A DNA stretch of 64,000 nt from an uncultured bacterium (GCA_965603365.1 CBFDCR010000012.1:21935-85934), one strand, 5' to 3'. Shown: positions 39,780-58,013, counted from the stretch's first letter. The notes: generated by a model not told the origin, from the sequence alone. Translations and numbers: made by a program.

Positions 39780-39828
39780 TTTTTAATTTGACTCTTTACA
39801 TAAGTTTAACATTTTTATAGAATATAGG

Positions 39829-41079: not shown

Positions 41080-42855
41080 ATGTTTGACTTTGCCTTTTGG
41101 TATACGGCCAGTTTGCTGGTCATTATGACGACTGTACTGGTGCTGGAGTGGATTGAGGCGGATATCGCCATTTTTTCCGTTTTGATTTTACTCATTGTAG
41201 GCGGCGTGATTGATGTAGAGGAGGCTTTTGTCGGTTTTTCCAATCCCGGCATGTTGACCATCTTGTTTCTGTTTATCGTGGCCGCAGCCATGCAAAAGAT
41301 CGGTGTAGTCAATCAAATTGGGGAAGCACTATTGGGAAAGACAGGGAGCATAACTAAAAAGCTGTTTCGTTTCCTGCCGCCCATCTCGGCAATCTCTGCT
41401 TTTTTTAACAATACCCCTATTGTGGCCATGCTGATTCCGGTGGTGCGGGGCTGGAGTAAGAAAAATCAAATCTCGGTATCGAAGTTGCTGATTCCCCTAT
41501 CTTACGCCACCATCCTGGGCGGCACCTGTACCCTCATCGGCACCAGTACCAACCTGGTGGTGCATGGCCTGATGTTGGAGAATGGATTACAGGGGATGGG
41601 CTTTTTTGAGATATCCAGAGTGGGTATACCGGTCGCCCTGTTCGGACTGGCTGTCATCATCTTGTTCGTGCACCGGTTGTTGCCGGATCGTAAAGAGCCG
41701 TTGGTGGAACTGGGAGAGGAAACCCGGGAATTCGTGGTGGTCATGAAGGTGGAAAAGGGATATCCCCATATTGGTAAGTCCATTGAGGCGGCGGGTTTAA
41801 GGCACTTAAAGGGATTATTTCTCTTTGAAATCGAACGGCACGCTTACCTGCTGAATTCCGTCGGGCCGGACGAGAAAATTCAGTTATACGATCGCCTGTT
41901 TTTCACCGGGCTGCCGGAGACCATCATGGAGCTCCAGAAAACCCAGGGCCTGTCCTTGCTAAAGGATGCGGTCTTTGATTTGAAAAATTACGATTCCGAT
42001 AACCTGCGTACCTTCGAGGTGGTGGTATCCGCCAATTCACCTCTGGTGGGCAAGAATGTACGGGAGAGCAATTTCAGAAGGAATTACGATGCAGTGATCA
42101 TTGCCATCCACAGAAGCGGTGAGCGGATTCGTCAGAAGGTCGGCAATATCGTCATCCGTCCCGGTGATACTTTGTTGATCCTGGCCAAACATAATTTCAT
42201 GCAGCAGTGGTATCACACCAGGGATTTTTACCTGGTCTCCCGCTCGGTAGATATTCCCTCCAAGCCCCGTTGGTATTCTTACTTTTCCCTGGGAATTTTG
42301 GGCGCTATGATCGTGGCCATGGCCTTCGGCGTCATACCTGTCTTAGTGGCGGTGAGTGCGGCGGCGGCAATATTGGTGATTTCCCGCTGTATTACCACCG
42401 AAGATGCTCGCAGCAACGTGGATTGGAAAGTCTTACTTATTATTGCCTCAGCTTTCGGCATTGCCAAAGGACTGGATAACTCCGGTGTAGCCCATTTCCT
42501 GGCGGTTAAACTCGTTGATCTGATTGGCTCTTTAGGGATTCTGGCCATGCTGGCCGTAGTCTATTTTGTGACCAATTTTTATACTTCAATTATCACCAAC
42601 AATGCGGCTGCCGCCCTGCTGGTCCCCGTCGCCCTGTCAACGGCCAATCAGGCAGGATTTGATCCTCGGGCCTTTCTTTTTGCCGTGGCCATAGCTGCCT
42701 CCGCCAGCTTCGCCACCCCTATCGGTTACCAGACCAACCTGATGGTCTACGGTCCCGGAGGATACAAATTTAAAGATTTTCTGAAAGTCGGTGTGCCGCT
42801 GAATATTTTAGTCGGCATCGTGGCGGTCCTGACAATCTATTTTCTTTATAGTTAA
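41080..42855 (+). CDS. SLC13/DASS-family permease with central TrkA-C domains
   Basis: 591 aa. TM bundles flank two soluble TrkA-C-like segments ([18 protein letters not shown]..., [17 protein letters not shown]...). Confidence 0.75.
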
Positions 42856-42861
42856 ATTCTA

Positions 42862-43518
42862 TTAGTCGCTGCAGATGAATTGCACCACCGGATCTGCGGT
42901 GAGCTGGTTGGTGACATATTGAGTGGGATGGCCGATGATCACCGACGGCGTACCCAGGAAGTCGATGGTCCAATCGTTGTAATCGATGTCGAACCCCTGG
43001 TTGTAATAGGCCGCCCATACCAGTTCGCTGCAGTACCATAAGTTGGATGTAATGGGCCAGCCGTACGGGTCATTGCACTTCCTCATGCCGTGAAACCAGT
43101 ACTGATAGTTGTCTTCGCCGGAAGGCGGTGAGCCCATGGCCCATTGAACGGCCGCCGCCTTCTGGGTATCGGAGGCGGTCGCCACTTCGTAGAAGGTGAA
43201 GTTCTCGTACCAATCCTTGAGGGTTGAATAACTTATGGTACCGACGCCGGAATGAGACGCTTCCACGAATTGGTTGCCGTCCAGATAATCGTGGCCCAGG
43301 TAGAGGGCACAATGGTCGTTGCTGGTGCCCTTTAGATAACTTTTCTTCTCGCCTACACCCGGTTTGATATCCATAAAAATGATATCGCCCTTATGCACAC
43401 TGGCGGGCACCTGGTCCACAGTGGTGGGAAAGAGACCGGAAGGCATGGCCGATATCAGCAGTATGGATATCGACAGACTCCACAAAACCCTTTTTTTCAA
43501 TAATACTCTCTGGTTCAT
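42862..43518 (-). CDS. secreted permuted papain-like (YiiX/YaeF, NlpC/P60 superfamily) hydrolase
   Basis: Signal peptide, GDIIF, HCALYLG, VEASHSGV and YCSELVWAAY in the permuted order typical of this family. Confidence 0.55.
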   Translation of the reverse strand: MNQRVLLKKRVLWSLSISILLISAMPSGLFPTTVDQVPASVHKGDIIFMDIKPGVGEKKSYLKGTSNDHCALYLGHDYLDGNQFVEASHSGVGTISYSTLKDWYENFTFYEVATASDTQKAAAVQWAMGSPPSGEDNYQYWFHGMRKCNDPYGWPITSNLWYCSELVWAAYYNQGFDIDYNDWTIDFLGTPSVIIGHPTQYVTNQLTADPVVQFICSD

Positions 43519-43646
43519 GTTGATTTAAACCTCCTTTATATATATTCAATATCAAATGTCGTTTTTCCGGGGTTTGGCTTTACCTCATGTACATATTATG
43601 CAAGCAATACCAGGATTTGTCAAATCCGATTGGCCGAAAAATATTA

Positions 43647-44291
43647 TTAAAACCGGAAAATCAATCCCACCTGGCTGACCCAAAAGCCGGTAGTAGTGCC
43701 GCTGGTAAAGATATGGTGGTAATCGGTTCCCCACTGGATGATCCAGTCGGCATTGAATGAATAATCCAGTCCCAGGCCGAGGTTAACGCCCGGTTGGGCA
43801 CGGCCGGTTTTGGGGATGTAGAGACCGGCACCGCCCCTTACATAGGGTCGGAAAGGATAGGTTGTAAATTCATATTTCAGGTTGGCCGACAGGTTCCACC
43901 AGTGGGTATCAGAGACCGGAGGAGATCCCGCCTTAAAGTGATTGTAGCCCAAAAGGCCCAGCAGCGAGAGCCGTGGTGAAAGATGGTAATCCAGGTTCAA
44001 CCCCAGCCTGTAACTGCCGTTGTAAAAGGTGTTAAAATTCCCGACTGGCAGGGTGATACCGGCATGGACACTGAGACTGTACCGTTTCTGGAGTTTATGG
44101 GCCAGGTTGAATGAGGTGGCCGTTCCCTTGACATCGACGGTGATATCGACATCCCCCAGATCTACGGAGGAGCACATTGGGGACAGCCGGTACAATGCAA
44201 ATTTCAAAATACCCAACAGCCAGCAACCAATTTCAATGGTCATTGCAAAATAACCAATACCCAATAACCAATGAAATCTTAACGTACTCAT
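43647..44291 (-). CDS. outer-membrane beta-barrel protein. N-terminus is uncertain and may be supplied or disrupted by repeat R2
   Basis: Alternating beta-strand pattern and C-terminal ...GLIFRF. Candidate starts are ATG 44177 (no signal peptide) or ATG 44291 (inside repeat R2). The rest of track ORF 43647-45065 is antisense to a radical SAM gene. Confidence 0.55.
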   Translation of the reverse strand: MSTLRFHWLLGIGYFAMTIEIGCWLLGILKFALYRLSPMCSSVDLGDVDITVDVKGTATSFNLAHKLQKRYSLSVHAGITLPVGNFNTFYNGSYRLGLNLDYHLSPRLSLLGLLGYNHFKAGSPPVSDTHWWNLSANLKYEFTTYPFRPYVRGGAGLYIPKTGRAQPGVNLGLGLDYSFNADWIIQWGTDYHHIFTSGTTTGFWVSQVGLIFRF

Positions 44292-44330
44292 TTTGCATTT
44301 TGCATTGGCTGTTTTGCAATTTGCAATGTA
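44191..44330. repeat. palindromic heptamer-repeat element, copy R2 (apparently one copy nested in another)
   Basis: Outer arms TACAATGCAAATTTCAAAA ... TTTTGCAATTTGCAATGTA. The inner unit CATTGCAAAATAACCAATACCCAATAACCAATGAAATCTTAACGTACTCATTTTGCATTTTGCA resembles R1 and R4. Confidence 0.7.
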
Positions 44331-44378
44331 TGTTATAGGCTCCTGGGCCGTCGGGTGGTTTTGGGGTATAATAGGGGT

Positions 44379-45428
44379 ATGGAATATACATGTGAGTTGC
44401 GGAGACAGGGGTTGTCGCCGGGGCGGTGTACGGTGAAGGAGAGGGGTACGGGGCGGCAGGGTCCGGCCTGTGAAATGACCCTCAAGAGCGAGGGCGGCGT
44501 GCTGCAGCGGTTGATCACCTCGGCCCACCTGTCGAGACCGGAACACTATTTTTCCATCTACCAGTCCGGCTGCAACATGGAGTGCCTCAAGTGCCACTCC
44601 TGGCGCTTCAGCCAGTATACGGAGGGGGAGTGGTACTCCGCCGCTGATATCCTGCGAATGGCAGGGGCGTATGCCCGGACAGTCACCTATGAGGAGCCGA
44701 AGGAGCGGGCCACCTCGTTCCATGCCCTGGACCTGTGCCGGGGCTGCGGTGCCTGTGTGCACCCGGACCGCCCCGGCGCCAAGGGGCCTTTGTGTCCCGG
44801 CAAAGTCGAGCCTTACCAGGTGGTCTTGAGTCCCCAGGGTTTTGGCCCGGCCCGAAACATCGTGGCCTTTACCGGCGGCGATGTCATGTGCCGTCCCGAT
44901 TTTTATGCCGACTGCGGCCGGAAGATAAAAGAGAACAACCTGCGCCTGTGGCTGCTGCTGGAGACCAACGGTTACGGTCTCACTCCCCAGAATCTCGATG
45001 TGTTGAAGGGGGCAGGCATCGATGCCTTCTGGCTGGACATCAAGGCCTTTGCTGCCGATGTCCACAAGAAACTGACCGGGGTCTCCAATGAGGGCATCTT
45101 GAAGTTACCGGCGGAGATGGTGAAGCGGGATTTTACCCTGGAGGTGTTGACGTTGTACATTCCCGGCTGGGTGGAGGCAGACCAGATCGGCCGCATTGCC
45201 GAAATCACGGCAGCGGTGGACAAAAACATCCCCTTCACCATCCTGGCCTTCTTCCCGGAATACAAGATGAAGCAGGTGACTTCCCCCACCCTGGATCAGA
45301 TGCTGGCCGCCTACGACGAAGTAAAGAAGACCGGCCTCCACCATGTCCGCCTGGCCAACCTGGGGGTATTCATCACCAGCGAAACCCAGATGGCCGCCCT
45401 CCTCTCCCATGCCCCCGACGCCGTTTAG
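44379..45428 (+). CDS. radical SAM protein (PFL-activase-related, function unknown)
   Basis: YQSGCNMECLKCHSW (CxxxCxxC) and FTGGDVM. Start uncertain (GTG 44355, ATG 44379 or ATG 44472). Confidence 0.7.
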   Translation: MEYTCELRRQGLSPGRCTVKERGTGRQGPACEMTLKSEGGVLQRLITSAHLSRPEHYFSIYQSGCNMECLKCHSWRFSQYTEGEWYSAADILRMAGAYARTVTYEEPKERATSFHALDLCRGCGACVHPDRPGAKGPLCPGKVEPYQVVLSPQGFGPARNIVAFTGGDVMCRPDFYADCGRKIKENNLRLWLLLETNGYGLTPQNLDVLKGAGIDAFWLDIKAFAADVHKKLTGVSNEGILKLPAEMVKRDFTLEVLTLYIPGWVEADQIGRIAEITAAVDKNIPFTILAFFPEYKMKQVTSPTLDQMLAAYDEVKKTGLHHVRLANLGVFITSETQMAALLSHAPDAV

Positions 45429-45515
45429 TTTACTTTACCCTATCTTAATGTTCCATCATCTTCATCTCAGTTTTTTTGGTTTACAGATTTTTTTGCCTGT
45501 CCCCTTTCGCCTCCC

Positions 45516-45719
45516 TTAAGTGATTTCTTTTACCAGTTGGATATTTTGCCTGATCAGTTTATTCACCATTGTTTCCACATCCATGCCCTTCCTGGCGGCT
45601 ATATCTTCAACAAACTTCCGAATATCCGGCTCCAGGTAAATCGGTAGATTCAATTTAACGTTCTTTCTATAAAATTTACCTCTTTCACCCTTAGAAAAAT
45701 CATACTCTTTTTGAATCAT
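45516..45719 (-). CDS. small antitoxin-like protein (RHH/CopG-like; EYDFSKGERGKFY N-terminus)
   Basis: 67 aa. This N-terminal motif is common in antitoxins encoded downstream of BrnT-type toxins. Lies directly downstream of a BrnT-like remnant. Confidence 0.5.
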   Translation of the reverse strand: MIQKEYDFSKGERGKFYRKNVKLNLPIYLEPDIRKFVEDIAARKGMDVETMVNKLIRQNIQLVKEIT

Positions 45720-45728
45720 AATATCTCC

Positions 45729-45785
45729 TCATATTGCCTTATCATGATCCCAATCGAAATCGTAATTGAATACTCTTTCAGCCAT
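45729..45785 (-). pseudogene. 18-codon remnant of a BrnT-like toxin gene
   Basis: Own translation MAERVFNYDFDWDHDKAI* matches the F-x-WD-x2-KA start of BrnT toxins, then stops. Confidence 0.45.
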
Positions 45786-45893
45786 TTTTCATATCCGCAA
45801 AATCAAGCACGCCTGAATATAGCATTTTCGTATTTATCACCTTATTATATATGATACACAAATTTTGCAATTGGTCAATATGGGACTCTCTTT

Positions 45894-46060
45894 TTGCCTG
45901 TCCCGTAAACTCTTGTTCATACAAAAATTAAACTCACCCCTTGATCCCCTCTCTTAAAAAGAGAGGGGAAATAAACTCCCCTTCTCTTTATAAGAGAAGG
46001 GGTTGGGGGATGAGTTAAGGAAGTTCGCTATTTTCATAGGAGCAAAAAAGGGACAGGCAA
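45894..46060. mobile_element. MITE-like double-hairpin element, copy A (TIR TTGCCTGTCCC / GGGACAGGCAA)
   Basis: Two perfect hairpins (CCCCTCTC-7 nt-GAGAGGGG at 45946-45968; CCCCTTCTCTT-tat-AAGAGAAGGGG at 45978-46002) between 11-bp terminal inverted repeats. The 92-nt core (45925-46016) equals the reverse complement of 50377-50468 except at 3 positions. Confidence 0.7.
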
Positions 46061-46061
46061 G

Positions 46062-46724
46062 AATATCATCCATAACCTGGATGATATTACATTGGACCGG
46101 AGATATGCCGCCATGTTGGGATATACCCAGGACGAACTGCACCGCTATTTTGATGACAGGATGGAGGCCTTCTGCAAACTAAAGGATTTTAAAAAAGAAG
46201 AACTGCAGGATGACATAAAATATTGGTACAATGGGTACTCCTGGGATGGCCAAAACTATGTATACAACCCCTTTTCGCTGCTGAAGTTTTTCCATAAAAG
46301 TCAATTTAGCAACTACTGGTTTGAGAGTGCCACCCCCTCTTTTTTAGTTAAACTCATCAAGGAAAAAGAGTACAGGGTACAGGATGTGGCCCAACTGGAG
46401 AACTATAAAGCCGGGGAATCGGTGTTTGAATCCTTTGAGATCGAAAAGATGAATGTGACGTCGCTGCTGTTTCAAACCGGTTATCTGACCATCCGGGAGA
46501 TCGAACCCATCGATCGCAATCGCAATAGAAGGCTTTATGTATTGTCCTACCCCAATATAGAAGTCAAAGAATCCTTTATGGAACACCTCCTGGCCGAGTT
46601 CTCCGAAAAATTCGCCGATAAAGTGAGTGTGATCATTTACGAGTTAAGGTGGAGCAAAAAGGGGCCAGGCAAATATCCCCCATTATTGAAAAAGAGAGTA
46701 GAATCTGATAATATAAGGCCGTGA
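46062..46724 (+). pseudogene. internal fragment of an AAA-ATPase-like/PD-(D/E)XK (PF09820-type) gene, truncated at both ends
   Basis: NIIHNLDDITLDRRYAAMLGYTQDEL...YNGYSWDG...YNPFSLLKFF...YWFESATPSFL... matches the middle of this family. There is no Walker A region and no C-terminal nuclease domain. Begins at the edge of MITE copy A. Confidence 0.6.
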
Positions 46725-46730
46725 TGTAAA

Positions 46731-47117
46731 ATGATTGACGTAAACAAACAGATTGAATATTGGACAGCAGGCGCGGAAGCTGATATTGATACAGCCGGAA
46801 TTTTAATAAAAAAGAGGAAATATCTTCATGGCCTTTTCTTTTGCCATTTAGCGATTGAAAAAATTATTAAAGCGAATGTGGCCAAAGGCACTCATCAGAC
46901 CCCACCCAAATCCCACAATTTATTTCGACTTTTAGAAGATGCCGGTATAGATATGGAGGATGAAAACATAGAGTTTCTTGGAATTTTGATGAAATATCAG
47001 TTGGAAGGAAGGTATCCGGATTATAGCCCCCAGGTTCCTGATAAGAAGACGGTAAGGGGATATTTTAGTAAAACCAGGGAGATGTTGATATGGCTAAAAA
47101 GGAAATTGTACGATTGA
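46731..47117 (+). CDS. HEPN-domain protein (toxin-type partner of a minimal nucleotidyltransferase)
   Basis: 128 aa, helical, with the EGRYPDY motif. Overlaps the following nucleotidyltransferase gene by 28 nt. Confidence 0.7.
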   Translation: MIDVNKQIEYWTAGAEADIDTAGILIKKRKYLHGLFFCHLAIEKIIKANVAKGTHQTPPKSHNLFRLLEDAGIDMEDENIEFLGILMKYQLEGRYPDYSPQVPDKKTVRGYFSKTREMLIWLKRKLYD

Positions 47118-47410
47118 TCCAGGAGTTGTTGAAACGTCTTTTCCAGGAAGGGATCTCTGTAGAGAAGGCTTTTTTATACGGCAGTCATGCCAGGGGAGAA
47201 GAGAATGAGGAGAGCGATATCGATATATTGCTGGTGTCTGCACTTTTTGATCAAAATGATGATCAGGTGGTGGGCAGGGCCTGGCGAATCAGTCGGTCCA
47301 TAGATCCCAGGCTTGAGCCCTATACCATGGGCAAAGAGAAATTTTCCAACGATCATATTTCGCCACTTATACAGATCGTAAAGAAAGAGGGCGTAGAGAT
47401 CCGGCTGTAG
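47090..47410 (+). CDS. minimal nucleotidyltransferase (MNT) domain protein
   Basis: YGSHARGEENEESDIDILLV (GSx10-11 DxD motif). 106 aa. Confidence 0.8.
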   Translation: MAKKEIVRLIQELLKRLFQEGISVEKAFLYGSHARGEENEESDIDILLVSALFDQNDDQVVGRAWRISRSIDPRLEPYTMGKEKFSNDHISPLIQIVKKEGVEIRL

Positions 47411-47458
47411 TTCCACCGATTTTCGAATTTGGCCCACCTGAGTTCCCAAATTTTCCAC

Positions 47459-47505
47459 CATAACCAATAAAATCTTGAAGGATTCATTTTGCTTTTTGCA
47501 TTGAA
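47459..47505. repeat. partial copy R4 (right half) of the palindromic heptamer-repeat element
   Basis: AACCAATAAAATCTTGAAGGATTCATTTTGCTTTTTGCATTG aligns with the inner unit of R2. Confidence 0.5.
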
Positions 47506-47569
47506 TAGCCCTCTACAGGCTTGACTTTTGGTGCTGGTTTTTAATAGAATGGGTTTTCAGGGGAAAAAT

Positions 47570-50317
47570 ATGAGTGTAATAGATTGGGCAGTGATTATGG
47601 GTTCCGGCGCCGCGGTGTTGAGTTGTCTTTTATTTCTTTACCAACTCTTGCGGCGTAAGAAAATCAAAAGAGATGAACTGGTCGCTCAGCGGGAAGCCAT
47701 ACACCTGTATAAGGAGAAGATGCTCAAGAAGGGCGCGCCCGTGTTGATGAAGGATTACCGGGAGGCACTGGCCAAAGAGTTGGGCACCGTCAACCTGTTT
47801 GGCCTGCGGCATTTCGATAATATCCCGGTGAAGCTGGATGAGGTGTTTGTACCCCTGCGCATTTCCGAAGCCTGGCGCAGCGAGTGGCGCTTCGATCCCC
47901 GCAAGCGTAAAAACAGGCAAGAGCTGGCCAGGTTTGAGTCCGGCGAGCGATCCTTTGCCCCGGCAGAGGTGATGCGCCGGGCCTTTAAAAAAGCCCCACT
48001 CTTACTGATCATCGGCGACCCCGGCTCCGGTAAGACCACCTTGTTGAAATACTATGCCATATCCTGCCTGGAAAACCGGCACAAACAACTGGGACTGCCT
48101 AAACATGTACTGCCCATCTTTCTTCCCCTGCGGGAACTGCAATTTGAAGGATCCCGTCCCATCCTGCTGTGGGAAAACCTGGCCCGGCGGCCAAAGACCG
48201 CTCTTTTAAATATTACCGCACGGGACTTTCGATACTGGATCCGGAACCGGCCCAGCCTGATCCTGCTGGACGGCCTGGATGAGATCAGCGACCTGGAGCG
48301 CCGCTGGGCCGCGTGTGAGTGGATCAAGCACCTCAGCGAGACCCTGCCAGAGGCCCGGTTCGTGGTCACGGCCCGGGGAACCGGCGTGCGCAAGGAAGAT
48401 CTGGTGGAACTGGAGTGCCGCCACTTGCGGGCGGATATCCTGGATTTTTCGCCGGAGCAGCAGGGGATATTTTTGAAGAGCTGGTTCCGCTCCGCGTTCC
48501 TGGAAGAACTGCCGGAAGAGGGGATAACGGAGCGGGCCTGGCAGGCGCAGCAGACCGGGGAGGCCGAGGCAAAGGCAAGAGAGATCATCGATTTTTTAAA
48601 TAAAAAGGAGAACCGGGGCATCCGCCAGTTGGCGGGCATACCCATGCTGCTGCAAATCATGGCAATTGTGTGGAAGGACCGGGAGTACCTGCCGGGCAGC
48701 CGCTTTGAACTGTATGATACTGCCCTGGATTACCTGCTGGATTACCGGGACCGCCGGCGGAAAATCAAGCCGCCGCTGCCGGTGGAAAGCAGCCGGCGGG
48801 TGCTGGAACCCACGGCCCTATGGATGCAGCTTGAAGAGCGAGATGAGGCCGAAAAGAGTGAATTCCATGAAAAAGCGGCGCCCATTTTAGAGACCATGAA
48901 AGAGCAGTTGTCGGCGGAGAAGTTTTGTGTCTATCTGCGGGACCGGGCCGGTCTGATCGCCGATTACGGGGAAGATCACTATATATTCCGCCACAAGTCT
49001 TTCCGGGAGTTCCTGACCGGCGCGCAGTTGCTCAAGGAGGGCCACCAGGAGGAGTGGCTGAAGACCCTGGTGGAGAATTTTAAACAGCCCTGGTGGGAAG
49101 AGGTGCTGCGTTTTTTCATGAGCAGTGCCGACGATAAAATCTTTGACCGCTTCATGCGCCTCTTCTTCCGCTCAGAGGTGAGCCGGTCCCTCACTGCCAA
49201 CCAGCAGATACTGCTTGAGAACCTGGTGCGGGAATCCCCCCAGTGGAAGGTGGATGGCCTGATCGACAGCCTGGAGGATACCGGTCTGAACCACAACCAG
49301 ATCCGCTGTGCACTGGATTGCCTGAAAACAATCGGTATCCCCCGGGCGATAGACGGCATCAAAGAAGCCGACAAAAGCAGTTGGAGCCAGGCCAACCGCA
49401 GCCATGCCGACGACATCGTGGCCGAAGCCACGGGTACACCGGCAAAACCGGCGATAGTAGATGAGGCGGCGCCCCCCTCTTTCCGCAACCCCTTCGAGGA
49501 CAACGTGGAGTACATCCTGATCCCCGGCAACACCTACACCTATTCGGTGTCGAAAAAAGAGGTCACTGTGCCGGACAGCTACTTCTGCAAATACCCGGTC
49601 ACCAACAAACGCTACCGCCGCTTCATGGCTTACCTCTCCAAAGAGGAAAAGGAACTGACCGGTGTGCTTCCCCTTGACCTGTTTGCTCCCAAACTGCGGA
49701 CATTTGCAGGCTCCATACAAGGGTTTCTGGAAAAGTCGGGCAAGCAGCCGGAAAAGTGGTTGAAGGCATTCCGTTCCCGGGCCGATGATGATCGACATTT
49801 TAACGGTCCCGACCAGCCGGTGGTAAGGATTAACTGGTATGCGGCCCGGGCCTACTGCTTCTGGCTTTCATGCATGGAAGCGGCCCAACAGGGAGATTTT
49901 AAGAACCGGGATGTCGATGCGGTTGCGTCTATTTACCGGCTGCCCCGTGAATGGGAGTGGGAGTGGGCCGCGGCCGGTCGCGAACCGGACGGCTCTTTAA
50001 GGGAGTACCCCTGGCCCAAAAACAAGGGAGAACCCACCCCGGAACTGGCCAATTACGGTAGAAATGTGATTACCACCACACCGGTGGGCCGCTACCCCGA
50101 TGGGGCCACGTCCGAGGGCTTAATGGACATGGCCGGCAATGTCTGGGAGTGGATGGAGAATTTAGATAAAGAATATGGGATTCCGGCGTTGCGCGGCGGC
50201 TCGTGGATCAACGGTAAGGTCAACCTCCGTTGTTCCGCCCGCAGCAACGCCAGCCTCATCACCCCTCGTGCCAAGTTCTACGGCATCGGTTTTCGTGTTG
50301 TGCGGTGCCAGTTTTAG
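47570..50317 (+). CDS. membrane-anchored NACHT (STAND) NTPase fused to a C-terminal FGE-sulfatase (SUMF1-like) domain
   Basis: N-terminal TM IMGSGAAVLSCLLFLYQLL, Walker A GDPGSGKTTLLKY, Walker B LILLDGLDE. C-terminus has PVVRINWYAARAYCFWLS, YRLPREWEWEWAA, MAGNVWEWM, RGGSW and GFRVVR. ATG 47570 follows AGGGGA; the track starts at TTG 47528. Confidence 0.8.
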   Translation: MSVIDWAVIMGSGAAVLSCLLFLYQLLRRKKIKRDELVAQREAIHLYKEKMLKKGAPVLMKDYREALAKELGTVNLFGLRHFDNIPVKLDEVFVPLRISEAWRSEWRFDPRKRKNRQELARFESGERSFAPAEVMRRAFKKAPLLLIIGDPGSGKTTLLKYYAISCLENRHKQLGLPKHVLPIFLPLRELQFEGSRPILLWENLARRPKTALLNITARDFRYWIRNRPSLILLDGLDEISDLERRWAACEWIKHLSETLPEARFVVTARGTGVRKEDLVELECRHLRADILDFSPEQQGIFLKSWFRSAFLEELPEEGITERAWQAQQTGEAEAKAREIIDFLNKKENRGIRQLAGIPMLLQIMAIVWKDREYLPGSRFELYDTALDYLLDYRDRRRKIKPPLPVESSRRVLEPTALWMQLEERDEAEKSEFHEKAAPILETMKEQLSAEKFCVYLRDRAGLIADYGEDHYIFRHKSFREFLTGAQLLKEGHQEEWLKTLVENFKQPWWEEVLRFFMSSADDKIFDRFMRLFFRSEVSRSLTANQQILLENLVRESPQWKVDGLIDSLEDTGLNHNQIRCALDCLKTIGIPRAIDGIKEADKSSWSQANRSHADDIVAEATGTPAKPAIVDEAAPPSFRNPFEDNVEYILIPGNTYTYSVSKKEVTVPDSYFCKYPVTNKRYRRFMAYLSKEEKELTGVLPLDLFAPKLRTFAGSIQGFLEKSGKQPEKWLKAFRSRADDDRHFNGPDQPVVRINWYAARAYCFWLSCMEAAQQGDFKNRDVDAVASIYRLPREWEWEWAAAGREPDGSLREYPWPKNKGEPTPELANYGRNVITTTPVGRYPDGATSEGLMDMAGNVWEWMENLDKEYGIPALRGGSWINGKVNLRCSARSNASLITPRAKFYGIGFRVVRCQF

Positions 50318-50337
50318 GGTCTCTGTTGGTACTCTGA

Positions 50338-50493
50338 TGCTCTGTCCATCTGAAACTCTGGTCCCGCGGCAGGTGCAACTCATCCCCCAACCCCTTCTCT
50401 TAGAAAGAGAAGGGGAGTGTATTTCCCCTCTCTTCTTAAGAGAGGGGATCAAGGGGTGAGTTTAATTTTTAAGGGAAACAAAACGGGACAGTC
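50338..50493. mobile_element. MITE-like double-hairpin element, copy B (inverted relative to copy A)
   Basis: The core 50377-50468 is the reverse complement of 45925-46016 (3 differences, located in hairpin loops or the linker). Degenerate end TGCTCTGTCC at 50338 and GGGACAG at 50485. Confidence 0.65.
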
Positions 50494-50513: not shown

Positions 50514-50618
50514 TCATTTTATTATAGAAGCTAAATACCGGGTTTTATCGACATAATAATAGTGTCCTGTCACAAATTTTTCATAGTCTGTCAGGCCATA
50601 AGGGATTTTTTTGATCAT
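50514..50618 (-). pseudogene. N-terminal fragment (34 codons) of an AAA-ATPase-like (PF09820-type) gene
   Basis: Own translation MIKKIPYGLTDYEKFVTGHYYYVDKTRYLASIIK* matches the family N-terminus (...Y[FY]VDKT.[YF]I). Lies 21 nt from MITE copy B. Confidence 0.55.
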
Positions 50619-50819
50619 CTTATCACGTATCTCCGCTAAGATTATATCCAATCTCCACCGCTATTGCAAACCCCGGCTAAAGATTTTGGGCGGGGGGTGA
50701 AAAATGTGGAAAAAATGGCCTGCTTCTATTGAAATACCGCTTTATTTCGTTTAAAATTCCTTTTTGGAGCCTCGTCGACTCAGAGGAATTTATTATTAAC
50801 GATGAAATAAGGAGGAATC

Positions 50820-51959
50820 GTGGATTATTTATTGACCGAAGAGCAAATGATGTTGCGGGACATGGTTGCCAAATTTGCCAAAAATGAGATCGGCCCCTGT
50901 GCCCGGGAAAACCAGGAGAAGGGAGAATTCCCGGCGGAGATTGTGAAAAAGGCCGGTGAACTGGGTTTGATGGGCGTGGCCTATCCGCCGGAGTACGGCG
51001 GGGCCGGCATGGATTATGTGTCGTATATGATCGCTATCGAGGAAATTTCCCGGTATTGTGCCTCCACCGGCGTGATCGTCTCGGCCCACTCTTCGCTGTC
51101 GGTGGACCCCATCTTCCGCTTTGGTACCGAGGAACAAAAGAAGAAATATTTGCCGGACATGTGTGCCGGTAAGAAGATCGGCTGCCTGGCCCTGACCGAG
51201 CCGGGGGCCGGTTCCGACGCCGGTGCTACCAAAACAACGGCTAAGCTTGAAGGTGATCATTGGGTGCTGAACGGCACCAAACAGTTTACCACCAACGGCA
51301 ACGAAGCGGAAGTGGCGGTCATTATCGCCTCCACCGATCCGGCCCAGAAGGCCCGCGGCATCAGTGCCTTTATCGTGGAAAAGGGAACACCCGGTTTCCG
51401 GGTGGGCAAGCTGGAACACAAACTGGGGATCAAAGCTACCTCCACGGCGGAATTTATCTTAGAGGAGTGCAAAATCCCCCAAGGGAACCTGCTGGGTGAG
51501 TTGAACAAAGGATTCAAGATCTCCATGATTACGTTGGACGGCGGCCGGTTGGGAATCGCCTCTCAGGCCCTGGGTATTGCCCGGGCCTCCATAGAGGATT
51601 CCATTCAATACGCCAAGGAACGGGAGCAGTTTGATCAGCCCATTGCCAGTTTCCAGGCCATCCAGTGGATGATTGCCGATATGTGGACCGAGTATGAGGC
51701 GGCCTGGCTGTTGACCTACCGGGCCTCTTTGATGAAGGATAAAGGTTTGCCCTATTCCAGGGAGGCGGCCATGGCCAAGCTCAAGGCCTCCGAAGTGGCC
51801 TCCTTTTGCGCCAACAAGGCGATTCAGATCCACGGCGGTTACGGCTACATCAAGGAATTTGATGTGGAGCGATACTTGCGGGATGCCAAAATCACCGAGA
51901 TTTACGAGGGCACCAGTGAAATCATGAGGCTGGTGATATCGGCGAGTCTGTTGAAATGA
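50820..51959 (+). CDS. acyl-CoA dehydrogenase (short/branched-chain type)
   Basis: GTG start behind AAGGAGG. LTEPGAGSD, QIHGGYGY, and IYEGTSEI near the C-terminus. Confidence 0.9.
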   Translation: MDYLLTEEQMMLRDMVAKFAKNEIGPCARENQEKGEFPAEIVKKAGELGLMGVAYPPEYGGAGMDYVSYMIAIEEISRYCASTGVIVSAHSSLSVDPIFRFGTEEQKKKYLPDMCAGKKIGCLALTEPGAGSDAGATKTTAKLEGDHWVLNGTKQFTTNGNEAEVAVIIASTDPAQKARGISAFIVEKGTPGFRVGKLEHKLGIKATSTAEFILEECKIPQGNLLGELNKGFKISMITLDGGRLGIASQALGIARASIEDSIQYAKEREQFDQPIASFQAIQWMIADMWTEYEAAWLLTYRASLMKDKGLPYSREAAMAKLKASEVASFCANKAIQIHGGYGYIKEFDVERYLRDAKITEIYEGTSEIMRLVISASLLK

Positions 51960-51987
51960 CCGGGTTACCGCGAGGGGAAAAGGGGTC

Positions 51988-52731
51988 ATGACAGAAGATA
52001 AAAGAAGCGCCGAAGATCTCAGCCAGGAAGAACTGGTGCGCTTGCTGATGGATTTTTTTCACCGCACCGCCATGCACCATGCCATGTGGTATGCCGAAGT
52101 GCAGCACCAACTGGGACGGCAAAAGGCCCAGGATATTCTGAAGTCGGTGGTGGAGAAGGGATTCGACATCCAACTAAAGAGGTTGGCCAAAACCATCGGT
52201 TTCGAGATGAAGGATGGTCTGCCGGTGCCGCTGTTGAATCTACCCGAAGATAAATTGAAGGAATTGACCGAAACCGCGGCCGTCAACTGGTTGGCCAACG
52301 ACGGTGTCTGGTTTCAGGCGGTGGAGTTCTCACGGAATATGGGCGATGCCAAGCGGAGCAACGATTCCTGCTGGGCCCAATTTTCTCCCTTCGAGGCCTG
52401 GTCCATCAAGCGGTTTTTGGACCTGCCGGATCAGCCGGGTCTGGAAGGTTTAAAAAGGGCTTTACAGTTTCGTTTATATGCCTTTATCAACAAGCAGTCC
52501 ATCGCGGCTGAGACGGCCGAAGGCTTCACCTTCATGATGAATGAGTGCCGGGTACAGGCGGCCAGGAAGCGAAAAGGTCTGGATGATTATCCCTGCAAAT
52601 CGGCGGGGCTGGTGGAATACCCGATGTTTGCCGAAGCCATCGATTCCCGCATCAGAACCGAATGTATCGGCTGCCCGCCGGATGAGCATCCGGACGAATG
52701 GTACTGTGCCTGGCGGTTCACCATGAAATAA
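51988..52731 (+). CDS. conserved hypothetical protein (DUF6125 / ATC-hydrolase-like), Cys-rich C-terminus
   Basis: 247 aa with C-terminal CRVQ...CKS...CIGC...CAWRF. The family assignment is from memory only. Confidence 0.4.
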
Positions 52732-52747
52732 TGGAATAGAGGAGAAT

Positions 52748-55700
52748 ATGACGGCAAAAACAGCAGACGTAGACGTTTATCAGGCAAAAAATAAGATTCG
52801 GGTGGTGACCGCCACCTCGTTGTTTGACGGCCACGATGCCTCCATTAATATCATGCGCCGTATTATCCAGGCTTCCGGCTGCGAGGTGATCCACCTGGGG
52901 CACAACCGTTCGGTAAAAGAGGTGGTGAACTGTGCCATCCAGGAGGATACCCAGGCTGTGGCGGTGACCTCCTACCAGGGCGGCCATGTGGAATATTTAA
53001 AGTACATGTATGACCTGCTCAAGCAGGCCGGCGCGGATCACATCAAAATCTTTGCCGGCGGCGGCGGGGTGATCCTGCCGGCTGAGATCAAGGAGCTTCA
53101 GGAATACGGCATCACCCGGATTTACTCCCCCGATGACGGCCGGGCCATGGGGCTGCAGGGCATGATCAACGATATGCTATCCAGATGTGATGTTCCCACC
53201 GGTGCCCATTTAGACGGTGCGTTTGAAAATCTGAGAAACAGGGATTATAAAGCCATTGCCCGCCTGATATCGGCGGCCGAAAATTTTCCCGATAAGTCCA
53301 GAGGGGTGATGCGGCAGCTCGAGGAGATTGTCCGGGAAAAAACGGTGCCGGTGTTAGGCGTTACCGGCACTGGCGGTTCGGGAAAGTCTTCGCTGCTGGA
53401 TGAAGTGATCAACCGTTTCCTGAAGGATTTTAAAGAAAAGAGTGTGGCTGTTATTTCGGTGGATCCATCCAGGAGAAAGTCCGGTGGGGCATTAATGGGA
53501 GACCGCATCCGCATGAATGCCATTCACGACGGCCGGGTGTATATGCGCTCCCTGGCCACCCGGCAGTCTAATCTGGCTCTGTCGAAGTATGTGCGGGAGG
53601 CCGTCGATATTCTAAAAGCCGCCGGATTTGATCTGGTTCTGCTGGAGACCTCAGGGATAGGCCAGTCGGACACCGAGATTATCGATCATTCCGATGTGTG
53701 CCTCTATGTCATGACACCGGAGTACGGTGCCGCCACCCAACTGGAAAAGATCGACATGCTGGATTTTGCCGATCTGATCGCCATCAACAAGTTTGATAAA
53801 ATCGGCGCCCAGGATGCGCTGCGGGATGTGCGAAAACAGTATCAGCGCAATCATCAACTCTGGGATACCCCGGTTGAGGATCTGCCGGTTTTCGGCACCA
53901 TCGCCTCTCACTTCAACGATCCCGGAGTGAACTTACTGTATAGAGCCATTCTCAATCGGATTGTGGAAAAGACCGGCGCAGATTTAAAATCCACTTACCG
54001 GATCACTGCGGAGATGAGCCAGAAAGTATTCATCATTCCTCCCCATCGAACCCGCTACCTGTCGGAGATCACCGAGAGTATTCGCCGTTACGATCAATGG
54101 GTGGAGGACCAGCGGGAAGTGGCGCAGCAGTTGTATGGTATCAAACAATCCTTAGGGGCCCTTGACAGGGCCGAAACTCCGGCTCGAGGTGAATTGAAGA
54201 AACAGTTGTCAGAGCTTTATCAGGAATATGAAACCCAACTGGATGAGCAGAACAGGAAAGTCCTGGAAAACTGGGATCAAAAAGTCCAATCCTATAAAAA
54301 GGATTTTTATACTTTCAAAGTCCGGGATAAGGAGATCAAAATCGCCACCCACAGCGAAACCCTGTCCCACACCCATTTTCCCAGGATCAGTCTACCGAGA
54401 TACAAAGCCTGGGGAGATATCTTGAGGTGGAATTTGCAGGAAAATGTACCGGGGGAATTCCCCTTTACCGCCGGCGTGTTTCCCTTTAAACGGGAGGGCG
54501 AAGACCCCACCCGCATGTTTGCCGGTGAGGGCGGACCCGAACGTACCAACAGACGGTTTCATTATCTGGCCTTTGATCAACCGGCCAAGCGGCTGTCCAC
54601 CGCCTTTGATGCGGTCACCCTGTACGGCGAAGATCCGGATCTTCGCCCCGATATCTATGGTAAGATCGGCAATTCCGGTGTCTCTATCTGCTGCCTGGAC
54701 GATGCCAAGAAGCTCTATTCCGGTTTTCGGCTGGCGGATCCCAGGACCTCGGTCTCCATGACCATCAACGGCCCGGGCCCCATCATGACCGGTTTCTTCA
54801 TGAACACCGCGGTAGACCAGGAGTGTGAGATCTACATCAAAGAGCATGGACTGGTGGACCGGGTCAACCAAAAAATCGACCGGATATATAAAGAAAAGGG
54901 AGTGCGGCCCCGTTATCAGGGTGAGCTGCCCCGGGGCAGCGATGGCCTGGGTTTGATGCTCCTGGGAGTGACAGGTGACCAGGTACTGCCCCGGGATATT
55001 TACGAGAACATAAAGGCAGAGACCCTGTGCCGGGTGCGGGGCACGGTCCAGGCGGATATCTTGAAAGAAGACCAGGCCCAGAATACCTGCATCTTCTCCA
55101 CCGAATTTGCCTTGAAGATGATGGGGGATGTGCAGGAGTACTTTACCCGGCACAATGTGCGCAACTTTTACTCGGTCTCCATTTCCGGTTACCACATCGC
55201 CGAGGCCGGTGCCAATCCCATTACCCAGTTGGCCCTGACCCTGGCCAACGGCTTTACCTACGTGGAATATTATCTAGCCCGGGGCCTGGACATCGATCAG
55301 TTTGCCCCCAACCTCTCCTTTTTCTTTTCCAACGGCATCGAACCGGAGTATGCGGTCATCGGCCGGGTGGCCCGGCGCATATGGGCCAAGGCCATGAAGT
55401 TTAAATACAAGGGCAATGACCGTTCCCAGAAGTTGAAATATCACATCCAGACCTCCGGCCGGTCGCTCCACTCCCAGGAGATCAATTTTAACGACATCCG
55501 CACCACCCTCCAGGCCCTGTACGCCATCTACGACAACTGCAACTCCCTGCACACCAACTCCTACGACGAGGCCATCACCACCCCCACCGAGGAGTCGGTG
55601 CGGCGGGCCATGGCCATCCAGTTGATCATCAACCGGGAACTGGGGCTGGCCAAAAACCAGAATCCGCTGCAGGGATCTTTCATCATCGAAGAGTTGACCG

Positions 55701-56137
55701 ACCTGGTGGAGGAGGCGGTGTTGCTGGAGTTTGACCGCATCTCCGAGCGGGGCGGCGTACTGGGGGCCATGGAGACCAATTACCAGCGGGGCAAGATACA
55801 GGAGGAATCCCTCTATTACGAACAGTTGAAGCAGACGGGCGAGTATCCCATCATCGGCGTCAACACCTGGCTCTCTTCCGAGGGATCCCCTACGGTCATC
55901 CCCGGCGAGGTGATCCGGGCCAGCCAAGAGGAGATGCAATTTCAACTGCAGACCGTGGAGAGCCTGCACCAACGAAATGAGGCTACCGGCCCCCAACTGC
56001 TGGAAGAGCTGCAGCAGGTGGCCGTCAATAACGAAAATATCTTTGAAAAACTGGTGGAGGTCACTAAATACTGCTCCATCGGCCAGATCACCGGCGCCCT
56101 CTACAAAGTAGGCGGCCGCTACCGCCGCAATATGTAG
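52748..56137 (+). CDS. icmF: fused isobutyryl-CoA mutase (B12-binding domain, MeaB-like G protein, mutase catalytic domain)
   Basis: N-terminal [10 protein letters not shown] (DxHxxG B12 motif), central [14 protein letters not shown]-loop and NKFD, and a C-terminal methylmalonyl-CoA-mutase-like TIM barrel. 1129 aa. Confidence 0.9.
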
Positions 56138-56192
56138 ATCCCCCCAGCAAGTAGATGGAAAAAAGGGGAAATGGGGCCCTTTTTTCGTGAAC

Positions 56193-56221
56193 TTGACAAA
56201 AGAGGAGCCGTCGGCGATAAT
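56193..56221 (+). promoter_or_regulatory. consensus promoter TTGACA-17 nt-GATAAT inside the 5' end of track ORF 56171
   Basis: TTGACA at 56193-56198 and GATAAT at 56216-56221. Argues that the RhuM-like CDS starts downstream. Confidence 0.45.
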
Positions 56222-56260
56222 ACCCACAAACATCGTGAAGAAATTAATGGAGAAACAGAA

Positions 56261-57331
56261 TTGAGTGATAAGGATATTTCAGAATCTATTCCCAATTCTG
56301 AAATTACCATTTATGAAACAGAAGACGGGAAGGTAAAGATCGAAGTTTATTTTGGGAATGAAAATCTTTGGCTGTCGCAGGGGCTAATGGCGAAGCTGTT
56401 TGAATGCTCTAAAGACAACATTTCCCTTCACCTGAAAAATATCTACAGCGAAGGTGAACTGGATGAAGCGGCAACTACCGAGGAATTCTCGGTAGTTCGG
56501 CAAGAGGGTAAACGTCAGGTAAAACGGAGCATCACATTTTATAGCCTGGAGGCCATCATCGCTGTCGGCTACAGGGTAAACTCTACTCGAGGCACCCAGT
56601 TTCGGACCTGGGCAACCGATAAACTGAAAAACTATATTCTTAAAGGTTTTGCCATTGACGGCGATCGTTTCAAATACGGTACTCGCTTTGATGCTCGATA
56701 TTTCGAGGAACTCCTGGAAGAAATTAGAGAGATCCGGGCCAGTGAACGCATGGTGTATCAGAAGATTACCGATATTTATGCTACGGCTGTGGACTATTCT
56801 CCTAACTCTGTTGAAACAGAAAAGTTTTTTGCTACCGTGCAAAATAAAATGCACTTTGCAATAACTGGAAAGACCGCGGCGGAAATTGTTGCAGAGCGAG
56901 CAGATAAATATAAACCCAATATGGGTCTGACAACCTGGCGAAAGTCGCCCAAAGGAAAAATTTTGAAATCCGATATTTTCATAGCCAAAAATTATTTGCA
57001 AAAAGAGGAAATAAAAGCCCTTAATCATATTGTAGACATGTATCTGGATTATGCCGAGCTTCAGGCCAGCAGGGGGCGGCTAATGAAGATGGGGGACTGG
57101 GTGGGAAAACTCAATGCTTTCCTGAAGTTTAATGAGTTTGATATTTTGCAGGACAAAGGCAAAATTTCTCGTGAAGTTGCCAATGCACTGGCTGAAAAAG
57201 ACTATGAAGTTTTTCGGATCAATCAGGATAAAAATTATATTTCTGATTTTGATCGAATGGTGAAAGGGCTAAAAAAACCTAAAAAAAATGAAGAGGGTAT
57301 AAAAACGGGACACACGAAACATTCCTCATAG
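56261..57331 (+). CDS. RhuM-family (virulence-associated, Fic/DOC-context) protein
   Basis: IYETEDGKVKIEVYF...LWLSQ..MAKLF......ISLHLKNIY..GEL......EEF..V..EG.R.V.R....Y.L.AIIAVGYRVNS..GTQFR.WAT is the RhuM hallmark. TTG 56261 is a tentative start; there is no in-frame ATG until much later. Confidence 0.75.
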   Translation: MSDKDISESIPNSEITIYETEDGKVKIEVYFGNENLWLSQGLMAKLFECSKDNISLHLKNIYSEGELDEAATTEEFSVVRQEGKRQVKRSITFYSLEAIIAVGYRVNSTRGTQFRTWATDKLKNYILKGFAIDGDRFKYGTRFDARYFEELLEEIREIRASERMVYQKITDIYATAVDYSPNSVETEKFFATVQNKMHFAITGKTAAEIVAERADKYKPNMGLTTWRKSPKGKILKSDIFIAKNYLQKEEIKALNHIVDMYLDYAELQASRGRLMKMGDWVGKLNAFLKFNEFDILQDKGKISREVANALAEKDYEVFRINQDKNYISDFDRMVKGLKKPKKNEEGIKTGHTKHSS

Positions 57332-57644
57332 CCTTTACTGGAAGATTTTTATTGATCACAATCCAATAGAGGATTGGCAACCATAGGGGACAAGAGTTCG
57401 CTCCTGTCGAGATTTACTCCAATTCCGGCCTTTAAGACGAAATACCGAAGATCAACTCCCACTTTCGGGGCTTTTTTCCCCAAAAACGAGGTTTTAACCT
57501 CGAGGGAGATGACCCTGATGGAACGCTGCCCGCCAGACAGGTAAGCGGGCAATCTCCGGTGCTGCCTCAAGGTGAATTTGAAGAAAAAATGAAATGGGGG
57601 GGCGTTCTTTTGTGGGGGGAAATGGTGTATAATGATCGCGGACT

Positions 57645-58013
57645 ATGGAAGTAAAATTGCCGGATAAGTTGACGTTCAAGAGAAGGGAGGTCATCCAGTT
57701 GACCAAACTGGATGGCAGGGTGCTGGATTTCTGGGAGAGTGAATTCGGCGGATTCGTGCCGGTGGTCAATAACCTGGGGGAAAAATTTTATACCCGCCGG
57801 GATGTGGAACTTATTTTAAAAATCAAAAAATTTCTATTTGAGGAAAAGGTCGACAAGACCAGGATCAAAGAGATGCTGCGGACCGACACCCCATCTCCTT
57901 CTCCGAAGGTTGAAGCGGCCGATAATGGCAACTGGTGGCCCGAAAGGCGTGATTTAATTAAAAGTCGTTTAAAAGAGATATTGACATTACTGGACAAACG
58001 TGATAAAAAGTAA
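57645..58013 (+). CDS. MerR-family transcriptional regulator (small)
   Basis: HTH region FKRREVIQLTKLDGRVLDFWESEF and YTRRDVELILKIK. Immediately precedes tRNA-Pro. Confidence 0.7.
   Translation: MEVKLPDKLTFKRREVIQLTKLDGRVLDFWESEFGGFVPVVNNLGEKFYTRRDVELILKIKKFLFEEKVDKTRIKEMLRTDTPSPSPKVEAADNGNWWPERRDLIKSRLKEILTLLDKRDKK

Follow-up and report, generated by a model that had tools for sequence, protein, structure and literature searches.

A membrane-anchored NACHT-FGE-sulfatase protein with a DGR-type variable region, probably a stand-alone NLR-like cassette, in an uncultured bacterium

Proteins that join a NACHT or other STAND (signal transduction ATPase with numerous domains) module to an FGE-sulfatase (FGS) domain have been reported before, and these reports also cover their linkage to diversity-generating retroelements (DGRs), their presence in multiple copies per genome and the existence of remote targets (PMC7159879; PMC8195603; bioRxiv 10.1101/2022.07.19.500537; PMC10907252). 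FGE-sulfatase sensors are also included in a 2026 STAND survey (PMC13581612). The "antigen-receptor-type" NACHT-FGS proteins (Kaur et al., 2021, PMC8195603; Kibby et al., 2022, bioRxiv 10.1101/2022.07.19.500537) consist of a central NACHT STAND NTPase and a single C-terminal FGS domain proposed to sense invaders; they are often linked to an adjacent or distant DGR and occur in several copies per genome. Comparable proteins are the targets of clade 5D DGRs in Thiohalocapsa PB-PSB1 and other multicellular bacteria (Doré et al., 2024, PMC10907252), e.g., at the DGR 3 locus, where NACHT/nSTAND1 is combined with a diversified C-type lectin (CLec) domain. Here we describe a protein of this kind encoded in a 64,000-nucleotide stretch of DNA from an uncultured bacterium (GCA_965603365.1 CBFDCR010000012.1:21935-85934; the whole stretch is called the window below, and positions are counted from its first letter). 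The gene, located at 47570-50317 on the + strand, specifies an N-terminal transmembrane (TM) helix, a NACHT domain and an FGS domain. Since the TM-NACHT-FGS kind has already been described computationally (Kaur 2020/2021; Kibby 2022; Doré 2024), the locus adds a member to it and not a new kind of system.

The window protein shares its domain order with the proteins of Kaur and Kibby. In their accessible parts, those papers stress an N-terminus that carries effector-associated domains or an enzymatic effector, for example TIR, caspase or trypsin. The window protein possesses only a TM helix with a helical stalk and has no DGR nearby. Its likeness to the clade 5D targets extends to N-terminal extensions without known domains, the TM nature of some targets, tandemly duplicated and remote targets served in trans, and the reshaping of loci by transposons and repeats resembling miniature inverted-repeat transposable elements (MITEs). 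It differs from them in belonging to another lineage, by its looks that of an uncultured sediment bacterium, and in having no reverse transcriptase (RT) or template repeat (TR) within reach of the gene, so that diversification in trans is read from codon patterns. Characterised antiviral STANDs (Avs1-7, bNACHT01, and others) follow the same tripartite logic of sensor, NTPase and effector and have a NACHT fold like that of NLRC4 and NLRP3, both animal receptors with a nucleotide-binding domain plus leucine-rich repeats (NLRs); in contrast to the window protein, they mostly rely on TPR-like repeat sensors (bNACHT01 on a short C-terminal extension) and mostly on enzymatic effectors. Mtd of Bordetella phage BPP-1 and TvpA of Treponema possess a similar CLec/FGS fold with a C-terminal ligand-binding surface derived from AAC-rich template codons, but these are extracellular receptor-binding proteins, while the window domain is the predicted cytoplasmic part of an NTPase switch. 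Of the bacterial analogues of a somatically diversified immune receptor that have been proposed to date, NACHT-FGS proteins come closest, with an NLR chassis and a hypermutable lectin tip, and the present locus adds a compact, effector-less, TM-anchored example.

In our reading, which we consider rather likely, the gene encodes a stand-alone bacterial NLR whose lectin domain ends in a DGR-type variable region (VR). It would represent an autonomous cassette, of which the adjacent genes for a HEPN protein and a minimal nucleotidyltransferase (MNT) are not part, and would sense a foreign or guarded ligand with output through the TM segment. The features that compose it are:

47570-50317, + strand: TM-NACHT-FGS gene, NLR-like STAND NTPase of 915 aa (open reading frame (ORF), Pfam, AlphaFold2, Foldseek)
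47521-47550, + strand: sigma-70-like promoter, TTGACT-18-TAGAAT (10/12 in a consensus scan, kept in six paralogues)
47576-47647, + strand: N-terminal TM helix, aa 3-26, followed by RRKKIKR (hydropathy, AlphaFold2)
48002-48493, + strand: NACHT NTPase domain, aa 145-308 (Pfam, motifs, invariant alignment columns)
48530-49432, + strand: helical arm, aa ~321-621, resembling helical domain 1, winged-helix domain and helical domain 2 (HD1/WHD/HD2; AlphaFold2 model, predicted local distance difference test (pLDDT) mostly >85)
49556-50305, + strand: FGE-sulfatase/C-type-lectin-like (FGS) sensor domain, aa 663-912 (Pfam, E 9.3e-34)
50189-50302, + strand: DGR-type VR, aa 874-911, LRGGSW-INGKVN-LRCSAR-SNASLITPRAKFYGI-GFRVV (alignment to VRs with TRs, codon pattern of paralogues)
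50318-50370, + strand: conserved 3' flank with the core TACTCTGATGCTCTGTCCATCTGAAACTCTGG at 50330-50361 (kept in all lineage paralogues)

The window protein terminates in LRGGSW-INGKVN-LRCSAR-SNASLITPRAKFYGI-GFRVVRCQF, and its final ~38 codons align residue by residue with the VRs of homologues from loci L002, L005, L009, L017, L029, L045, and L055, for which TRs were found. The TRs of homologues encode LRGGSW-NN-xx-xN-LRCSAR-NxNN-P-xNRNNN-[IV]GFRVV; the window VR retains this scaffold, its residues departing from the template where the TRs specify Asn, and the AAC (Asn) codons of the TRs coincide exactly with INGKVN and SNAS...AKFYGI of the window protein. Mismatches between TR and VR fall at TR adenines in 14/14 cases in L002, 18/18 in L005, 17/18 in L009, 11/11 in L014, 21/21 and 20/20 in L017, 12/12 in L020, 20/20 in L029, 14/14 in L034, 15/15 in L045, 12/12 in L055, 13/13 in L060, and 21/21 in L067. 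Such adenine-restricted mismatches are the defining signature of DGRs. The initial annotation of the gene, made from the window alone, had missed this VR, which is the main feature of the locus.

The same conclusion is approached from the side of the copies within the lineage. Six paralogues of the lineage have nucleotide-identical VR scaffold codons (LRGGSW, CSAR, FRVV), though their NACHT parts are only 60-65% identical at the nucleotide level, and their hypervariable VR codons differ at positions 1-2, with position 3 usually being C (NNC). The numbers of variable sites at the three codon positions are 19/16/9 for the VR, 80/62/140 for the remainder of the FGE domain, and 378/289/480 for the NACHT half (Fisher p 2.8e-4 for the skew of the VR against the remainder of the FGE domain). 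This pattern is the opposite of that expected from ordinary drift and appears to be the trace of AAC-templated mutagenic homing. A candidate TR fitting these VRs would resemble GGCGGCTCGTGG-AAC AAC GAT GAA AAC AAC-CTCCGTTGTTCCGCCCGC-(AAC)n-CCT-...-GGGTTTCGTGTTGTGCGGTGCCAAT. A pattern scan of a metagenome collection with the VR scaffold gave 0 matches, and the 3 matches to a 19-mer taken from the end of the VR all lie in unrelated sequences; evidently, the lineage is not in the scanned collection.

The product of a separate gene of the window, at 6711-9113 (+), is a Ser/Thr protein kinase of 800 aa that carries at its C-terminus an Lcl_C (PF07603) domain, which we take to be the former DUF1566, a C-type-lectin-type domain. 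Kinase fusions to this type of domain are typical DGR targets. No template repeat matching the kinase gene was detected within the window.

The link with DGRs is also apparent in the genomic company of the family. Our search covered 5.8 billion proteins, with 8000 candidates scored, 1167 of which matched at E<=1e-5. The best 120, as listed, nearly all combine NACHT and FGE-sulfatase domains and show 47-57% identity over ~85-100% of the query, with one protein being 86% identical. Protein sources include Aminicenantes, KSB1, and Calditrichaceae, to which the genome loci add, among others, Chlorobiaceae, Planctomycetota, and the Delta1 symbiont of a gutless worm; a single Aminicenantes metagenome-assembled genome (MAG) supplies at least nine loci, and tandem paralogues are found in 14/75 genome loci. 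The two ORFs closest to the gene on either side were scanned with Pfam, which comprised 86 ORFs from 46 loci upstream and 79 ORFs from 42 loci downstream. The recurrent neighbours are bAvd, which ranks top with 7/79 downstream ORFs, RVT_1 (4 on each side), and the Avd-like 23S_rRNA_IVP (4). A hidden Markov model (HMM) built from 15 DGR RTs matches 21/75 genome loci, and an RT match, a TR or both are present in 22/75 loci, or in 14/46 when loci of at least 12 kb are considered. The recurrent partners of the homologues are thus DGR parts (bAvd, RT, template repeats), present at ~30% of homologous loci. Close homologues from other phyla are diversified by Avd-TR-RT cassettes beside the gene. At L014, a protein of the same one-TM architecture, with Walker A at aa 150, is encoded in a TR-RT-target arrangement in cis.

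As for the architecture, the initial annotation of a membrane-anchored NACHT NTPase fused to an FGE-sulfatase domain at 47570-50317 holds up at the level of ORF, Pfam domains, Walker motifs and single TM helix. The + strand ORF may start at 47528 (TTG) or 47570 (ATG) and ends at 50317. Since TTG 47528 falls inside the promoter-like site 47521-47550, between its -35 and -10 hexamers, and ATG 47570 is preceded by AGGGGA, the latter is the likelier start; the resulting 915-aa form is the one present in public protein collections. Only one hydrophobic segment was found (aa 3-26, Kyte-Doolittle 1.9). Hydrophobic segments before Walker A occur in 101 of 118 homologues with Walker A (39 with one segment, 61 with two), and the TM N-terminus therefore represents a family trait and not a truncation. 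The NACHT match (PF05729) has an E of 2.7e-12 and 47.3 bits against a cut-off of 26.7. Walker A (GDPGSGKT, aa 149-156) and Walker B (LILLDGLDE, aa 230-238) are both intact, and their residues are invariant in the 48-sequence family alignment.

The AlphaFold2 model, built from these 48 family sequences, reaches a mean pLDDT of 81.4 and a predicted template modelling score (pTM) of 0.75 for the 915-aa protein. It consists of an unbroken helix at aa 6-71 (TM and stalk), the NTPase domain, the helical arm, and a beta-rich C-terminal domain. In a Foldseek comparison with the PDB, NLRC4 (4kxf) came first (E 1.4e-11), followed by many NLRP3 entries (~1e-10) and then by ORC/Cdc6; the alignment to NLRC4/NLRP3 spans ~600 columns, and these matches (E ~1e-11) bear out the proposed NLR-like STAND/NACHT identity. 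Judging from the model, the fold of the nucleotide-binding domain (NBD) and the arm, NBD-HD1-WHD-HD2, resembles that of animal NLRs. Matches to PDB entries by sequence (EgtB, ToxD, PorK, PvdO) are confined to the C-terminal domain. The earlier description of the N-terminus as a single TM helix without a recognised effector also stood, as did that of the C-terminus as a lectin-like domain, which we read as a non-enzymatic sensor. The NACHT and lectin domains are predicted to be cytoplasmic, with an N-out/C-in topology, because of the positive-inside rule and the need of an NTPase for cytoplasmic nucleotide. An NCBIfam match to EruA lies far below the cut-off (33 bits vs 1000).

On the preferred reading, the hypervariable lectin surface would bind a cytoplasmic molecule that is either foreign, from a phage or another invader, or a guarded component of the host. 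Ligand binding would free the NACHT module for nucleotide exchange and subsequent oligomerisation, and the clustered N-terminal TM helices might then perturb the membrane or signal from it in a manner reminiscent of abortive infection. Since an enzymatic effector is lacking in most members, as is any conserved partner other than DGR parts, the TM helices are the best candidate for the output. The window copy may have been diversified in trans by a DGR outside the window, or by a DGR that is now lost.

The boundaries of the gene unit are revealed by its closest relatives. The 86% identical protein (P0001) is encoded on the 121-kb contig L001 (JGI sample 3300068089), where its neighbours are different. 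Nucleotide homology between the window and L001 is restricted to 47520-50370 (90% identity), i.e., to the promoter, the gene and ~53 nt of 3' flank. At least four further paralogues reside on other contigs of the same sample, where they adjoin varied small pairs of the toxin-antitoxin (TA) type (RelE; UPF0175 and DUF3368; DUF2204/DUF6036), never HEPN/MNT. The promoter block CTTGAC(T/A)TTTG...TA(G/A)AAT is common to all six copies (window, L001, L079, L080, and two on L081, a and b), with unrelated sequences upstream; its conservation suggests that the whole paralogue set is under common regulation. The ~53-nt flank after the stop codon also recurs, in surrounding contexts that are unrelated, at L001 (12773-12813), L079, L080, L081 (two copies), and L082. 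Two of three copies of this flank fold without significant structure (z -0.13 and -0.21); the L001 flank has a z of -2.2, but the stable hairpin sits downstream of the conserved core. The flank may be a DGR target-recognition element or merely part of the duplicated unit. Taken together, promoter, ORF and conserved 3' flank would make the gene a self-contained single-gene cassette.

Divergence is unevenly distributed along the cassette. In the NACHT part, the identity of the window copy to L001 is 96.6%, with no frameshifts; it drops to 80% across the FGE domain and to 75% over the final 140 nt, while the paralogues with 60-65% identical NACHT parts reach 74-88% in the FGE domain. Because FGE and NACHT identities form such a mosaic, the data suggest that sensor domains are exchanged among paralogues by recombination. 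Counting the window copy and the paralogues of the sister genome, which number at least five, all with the same promoter, a nucleotide-identical VR scaffold and the ~53-nt 3' tag, one may tentatively picture the dispersed TM-NLR cassettes as a repertoire that one distant DGR writes in trans, with the 3' tag as the cis target element and the sensors being shuffled in addition. We regard this extension as possible but doubtful; if true, a dispersed repertoire diversified in trans by one retroelement would be the finding of more interest.

In the window, the gene is placed in an islet together with the following features:

45516-45719, - strand: orphan BrnA-like antitoxin gene, 67 aa (100% identical to the gene beside BrnT in relatives)
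45923-46016, no strand assigned: left arm of a 94-nt inverted repeat, double-hairpin, MITE-like (absent from strain-level relatives)
46092-46724, + strand: middle third of an AAA-ATPase_like/PDDEXK_9 gene, a remnant (comparison with L082; no Pfam match alone)
46731-47410, + strand: HEPN and MNT pair, TA-like, judged independent (Pfam, PADLOC, NCBIfam)
50377-50470, no strand assigned: right arm of the 94-nt inverted repeat, a terminator-like hairpin after the NACHT-FGS gene (repeat search)

The repeat-bracketed islet of the initial annotation is thereby confirmed: the two 94-nt arms are 97% complementary and are the sole copies in the window. Rfam matches on these repeats were dismissed as miRNA-hairpin look-alikes scoring far under the gathering thresholds. 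The same double-hairpin element is also located directly upstream of the promoter of the L079 NACHT-FGS gene in the sister genome, and it may for this reason be a dispersed MITE-like repeat of the lineage, possibly tied to NACHT-FGS cassettes. The remnant at 46092-46724 aligns at 24% identity (E 2e-4) with aa 250-454 of the L082 PDDEXK_9 protein, which is 588 aa long. The decayed TA system noted earlier also proved real, as the BrnT toxin gene is intact beside the antitoxin gene in L082/L083 and is deleted in the window.

L082 (ENA) and L083 (JGI) are independent metagenome contigs of strain-level relatives that match window 35367-45918 and 50524-57768 with 98.5-99.3% identity. Between these flanks, they carry, in order, the antitoxin gene with intact BrnT, a broken NACHT-FGS gene, and a full-length AAA-ATPase_like/PDDEXK_9 gene, and they have no HEPN/MNT and no 94-nt repeats. 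The broken copy (L082/L083 10001-11616, equivalent to window 45880-50367) retains a 276-aa NACHT fragment, 93.6% identical to 47794-48560, and a 243-aa FGE fragment, 78.6% identical to window 49580-50367. A 33-nt motif, GGGACTCTCTTTTTGCCTGTCCCGTAAACTCTT (window 45882-45914), precedes each fragment and lies at both deletion junctions in L082/L083. By eye, TTTTTGCCTGTCCC-like motifs recur around the islet and near the end of the L082 PDDEXK_9 gene. From these comparisons, the islet appears to be a strain-variable hotspot with unrelated accessory pieces; HEPN/MNT, the PDDEXK_9 remnant, the orphan BrnA gene and the 94-nt repeats would then be other occupants and not parts of one system.

The HEPN/nucleotidyltransferase pair was correctly recognised in the initial annotation as lying upstream on the same strand. 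The HEPN gene (46731-47117; PF05168, E 6.7e-16) overlaps the MNT gene (47090-47410; NTP_transf_2, E 6.9e-9), and 159 nt separate the end of the latter from ATG 47570; both Pfam matches exceed their thresholds. As a minimal HEPN and nucleotidyltransferase pair with overlapping ORFs, these genes are like type VII HepT/MntA TA systems; they are unlike them in gene order (HEPN first), in having no conserved NLR link, and in the score of MNT against the NCBIfam MntA equivalog, which is 28.9 bits with a cut-off of 60 (PADLOC PDC-S09 matches at 1.5e-14). HMM iteration from the single HEPN and MNT sequences gave few matches, and we relied on the Pfam neighbour scans instead. A very low E-value obtained for L011 was rejected as an artefact of a two-sequence profile, the true identity being 33% for HEPN and 26% for MNT. 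Among homologous loci, HEPN/MNT stands upstream in 1/46 (L002), and L055 has MNT downstream. At L002 (7670-11587), MNT overlaps an in-frame HEPN-TM-NACHT-FGE ORF of 1081 aa, followed downstream by the TR; this fusion may be a true family variant with HEPN as effector, or else the product of a lost stop codon.

With these data at hand, the alternatives can be weighed. The initial annotation had joined HEPN, MNT and NACHT-FGE into one three-gene defence module, in which HEPN would be an RNase effector, MNT its regulator and the NLR the sensor. Adjacency on one strand, the short gap, the arrangement on the unrelated metagenomic contig L002 and the listing of HEPN among N-terminal domains of bacterial NACHT proteins (bioRxiv 10.1101/2022.07.19.500537) speak for it, but the pair is absent beside the 90%-identical orthologue, beside four paralogues and in the strain-level relatives with 99%-identical flanks. 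Nor are HEPN and NTP_transf_2 among the families matched more than once in the 165 neighbour ORFs, so that the recurrence expected of a module is not seen. Moreover, the NLR gene has its own conserved promoter, from which the MNT stop codon is separated by a dispersed-repeat fragment (47460-47503), and the gene order is opposite to that in L002 (HEPN-MNT here, MNT-HEPN there). HEPN/MNT thus looks like a chance neighbour and not a partner, and we hold a three-gene module to be quite improbable. Even smaller, close to negligible, is the probability that the C-terminal domain is a working FGE/EgtB/PvdO-type enzyme under NTPase control, as its strong Pfam FGE-sulfatase match and the public annotation of homologues as "SUMF1/EgtB/PvdO family nonheme iron enzyme" might imply. 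All NCBIfam enzyme equivalogs score far under their cut-offs (GldK 58.6 vs 350, PvdO 32.4 vs 500, SenA 29.1 vs 420, EgtB 27.4 vs 360, OvoA 27.1 vs 400). In human FGE, the catalytic Cys pair is, we assume, placed in the loop after GGS[WY], whereas the corresponding loop of the window protein (INGKVN, aa 880-885) contains no Cys and is hypervariable among paralogues; the same scaffold, moreover, doubles as the DGR VR. Given the low equivalog scores and the hypervariable loop without a conserved Cys, the FGS domain is most probably a binding module and not an enzyme.

Several points weigh against a functional, DGR-diversified NLR. BLAST of the 3' 417 nt of the gene within the window returned only the self-match and chance matches, giving no TR, and the RT model found nothing there even at E<=10; neither TR, RT nor Avd was found in the 64 kb or in ~100 kb of sequence from lineage relatives, so that ongoing diversification of the window copy is no more than a possibility. 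Relative to the paralogues, the window VR contains a 9-nt in-frame insertion of three extra NNC codons (AGC CTC ATC), and the copy stops earlier (QF*, compared with QLPGLR*), which could mean a mismatch to any TR. The broken copy of the strain-level relatives marks the locus as prone to decay. PADLOC v2 recognises only the P-loop (mad8, aa 139-170, E 2e-5; PDC-S60, E 0.003) and no system, including Avs/bNACHT. The NACHT-FGS architecture as such is already in the literature. The TM effector role, the ligand and anti-phage activity are entirely what we infer, and STAND-linked CLec domains are stated as not experimentally characterised (Doré et al., PMC10907252). It is conceivable, therefore, that the VR was written by a past DGR and that the copy is now frozen, possibly non-functional, one step before the broken version of the sister strains; the missing DGR parts, the insertion and altered 3' end, the split copy in L082/L083 and the insertions surrounding the gene fit such a fossil. 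We nevertheless judge it unlikely, though it deserves serious attention, since the ORF is full length, its catalytic motifs and the residues invariant in the family are intact, as are the promoter and the 3' flank, the NACHT part has stayed nearly identical to that of L001 and free of frameshifts, and related systems are known to include remote targets served in trans (PMC10907252), so that absence of a nearby RT/Avd does not exclude membership among DGR targets. Natural comparisons are offered by the 90%-identical orthologue (NACHT ~97%, sensor ~80%), the paralogues with identical VR scaffolds and the sister strains with the broken gene. A non-immune signalling receptor, serving self/non-self or cell-cell recognition or responding to an endogenous metabolite, would agree with the lack of a recognised effector domain and of a PADLOC system match, with several paralogues per genome under one promoter type, and with the proposal that cyanobacterial DGR targets also tune regulatory pathways (PMC7517822). 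Yet, conflict systems are usually marked by NLR-like architecture, hypervariability, paralogue expansion, sensor recombination, presence or absence at the strain level and surroundings rich in TA genes, all of which apply here, and it is among such systems that the literature consistently places NACHT-FGS proteins (PMC10907252; PMC8195603; bioRxiv 10.1101/2022.07.19.500537); we give a non-immune role a rather low probability.

Other observations concern repeats and neighbouring genes. A putative RT remnant upstream of the L001 orthologue (E ~5e-4) was rejected, as the region is a 21/41/62-nt tandem-repeat array. A segment of the window at ~18470-18720 resembles this array, which is located just upstream of the orthologue (L001 9484-9745); it belongs to a 2.4-kb region without long ORFs (17468-19876) with 21-nt repeats at 18475-18525, and 14.8 copies of a 21-nt tandem repeat (19977-20290) are found inside the ORF 19876-20343(-). 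The short dispersed repeat seen at 47460-47503 recurs in the window at 44196-44324 and 18321-18394, and in the sister genome at L001 14287-14392 and 15379-15466. A gene for a YaeF/YiiX C92 (NlpC/P60-like) peptidase at 42862-43518 (-) coincides with an insertion (42864-43633) absent from the strain-level relatives, the flanks being otherwise 99% identical. Finally, a RhuM-family gene at 56171-57331 (+; PF13310, E 2e-107) follows an IcmF-like fused B12-binding/MeaB/methylmalonyl-CoA-mutase gene, and the 90%-identity cluster of its product includes a protein from an Aminicenantes MAG (NCBI name), which hints at horizontal transfer.

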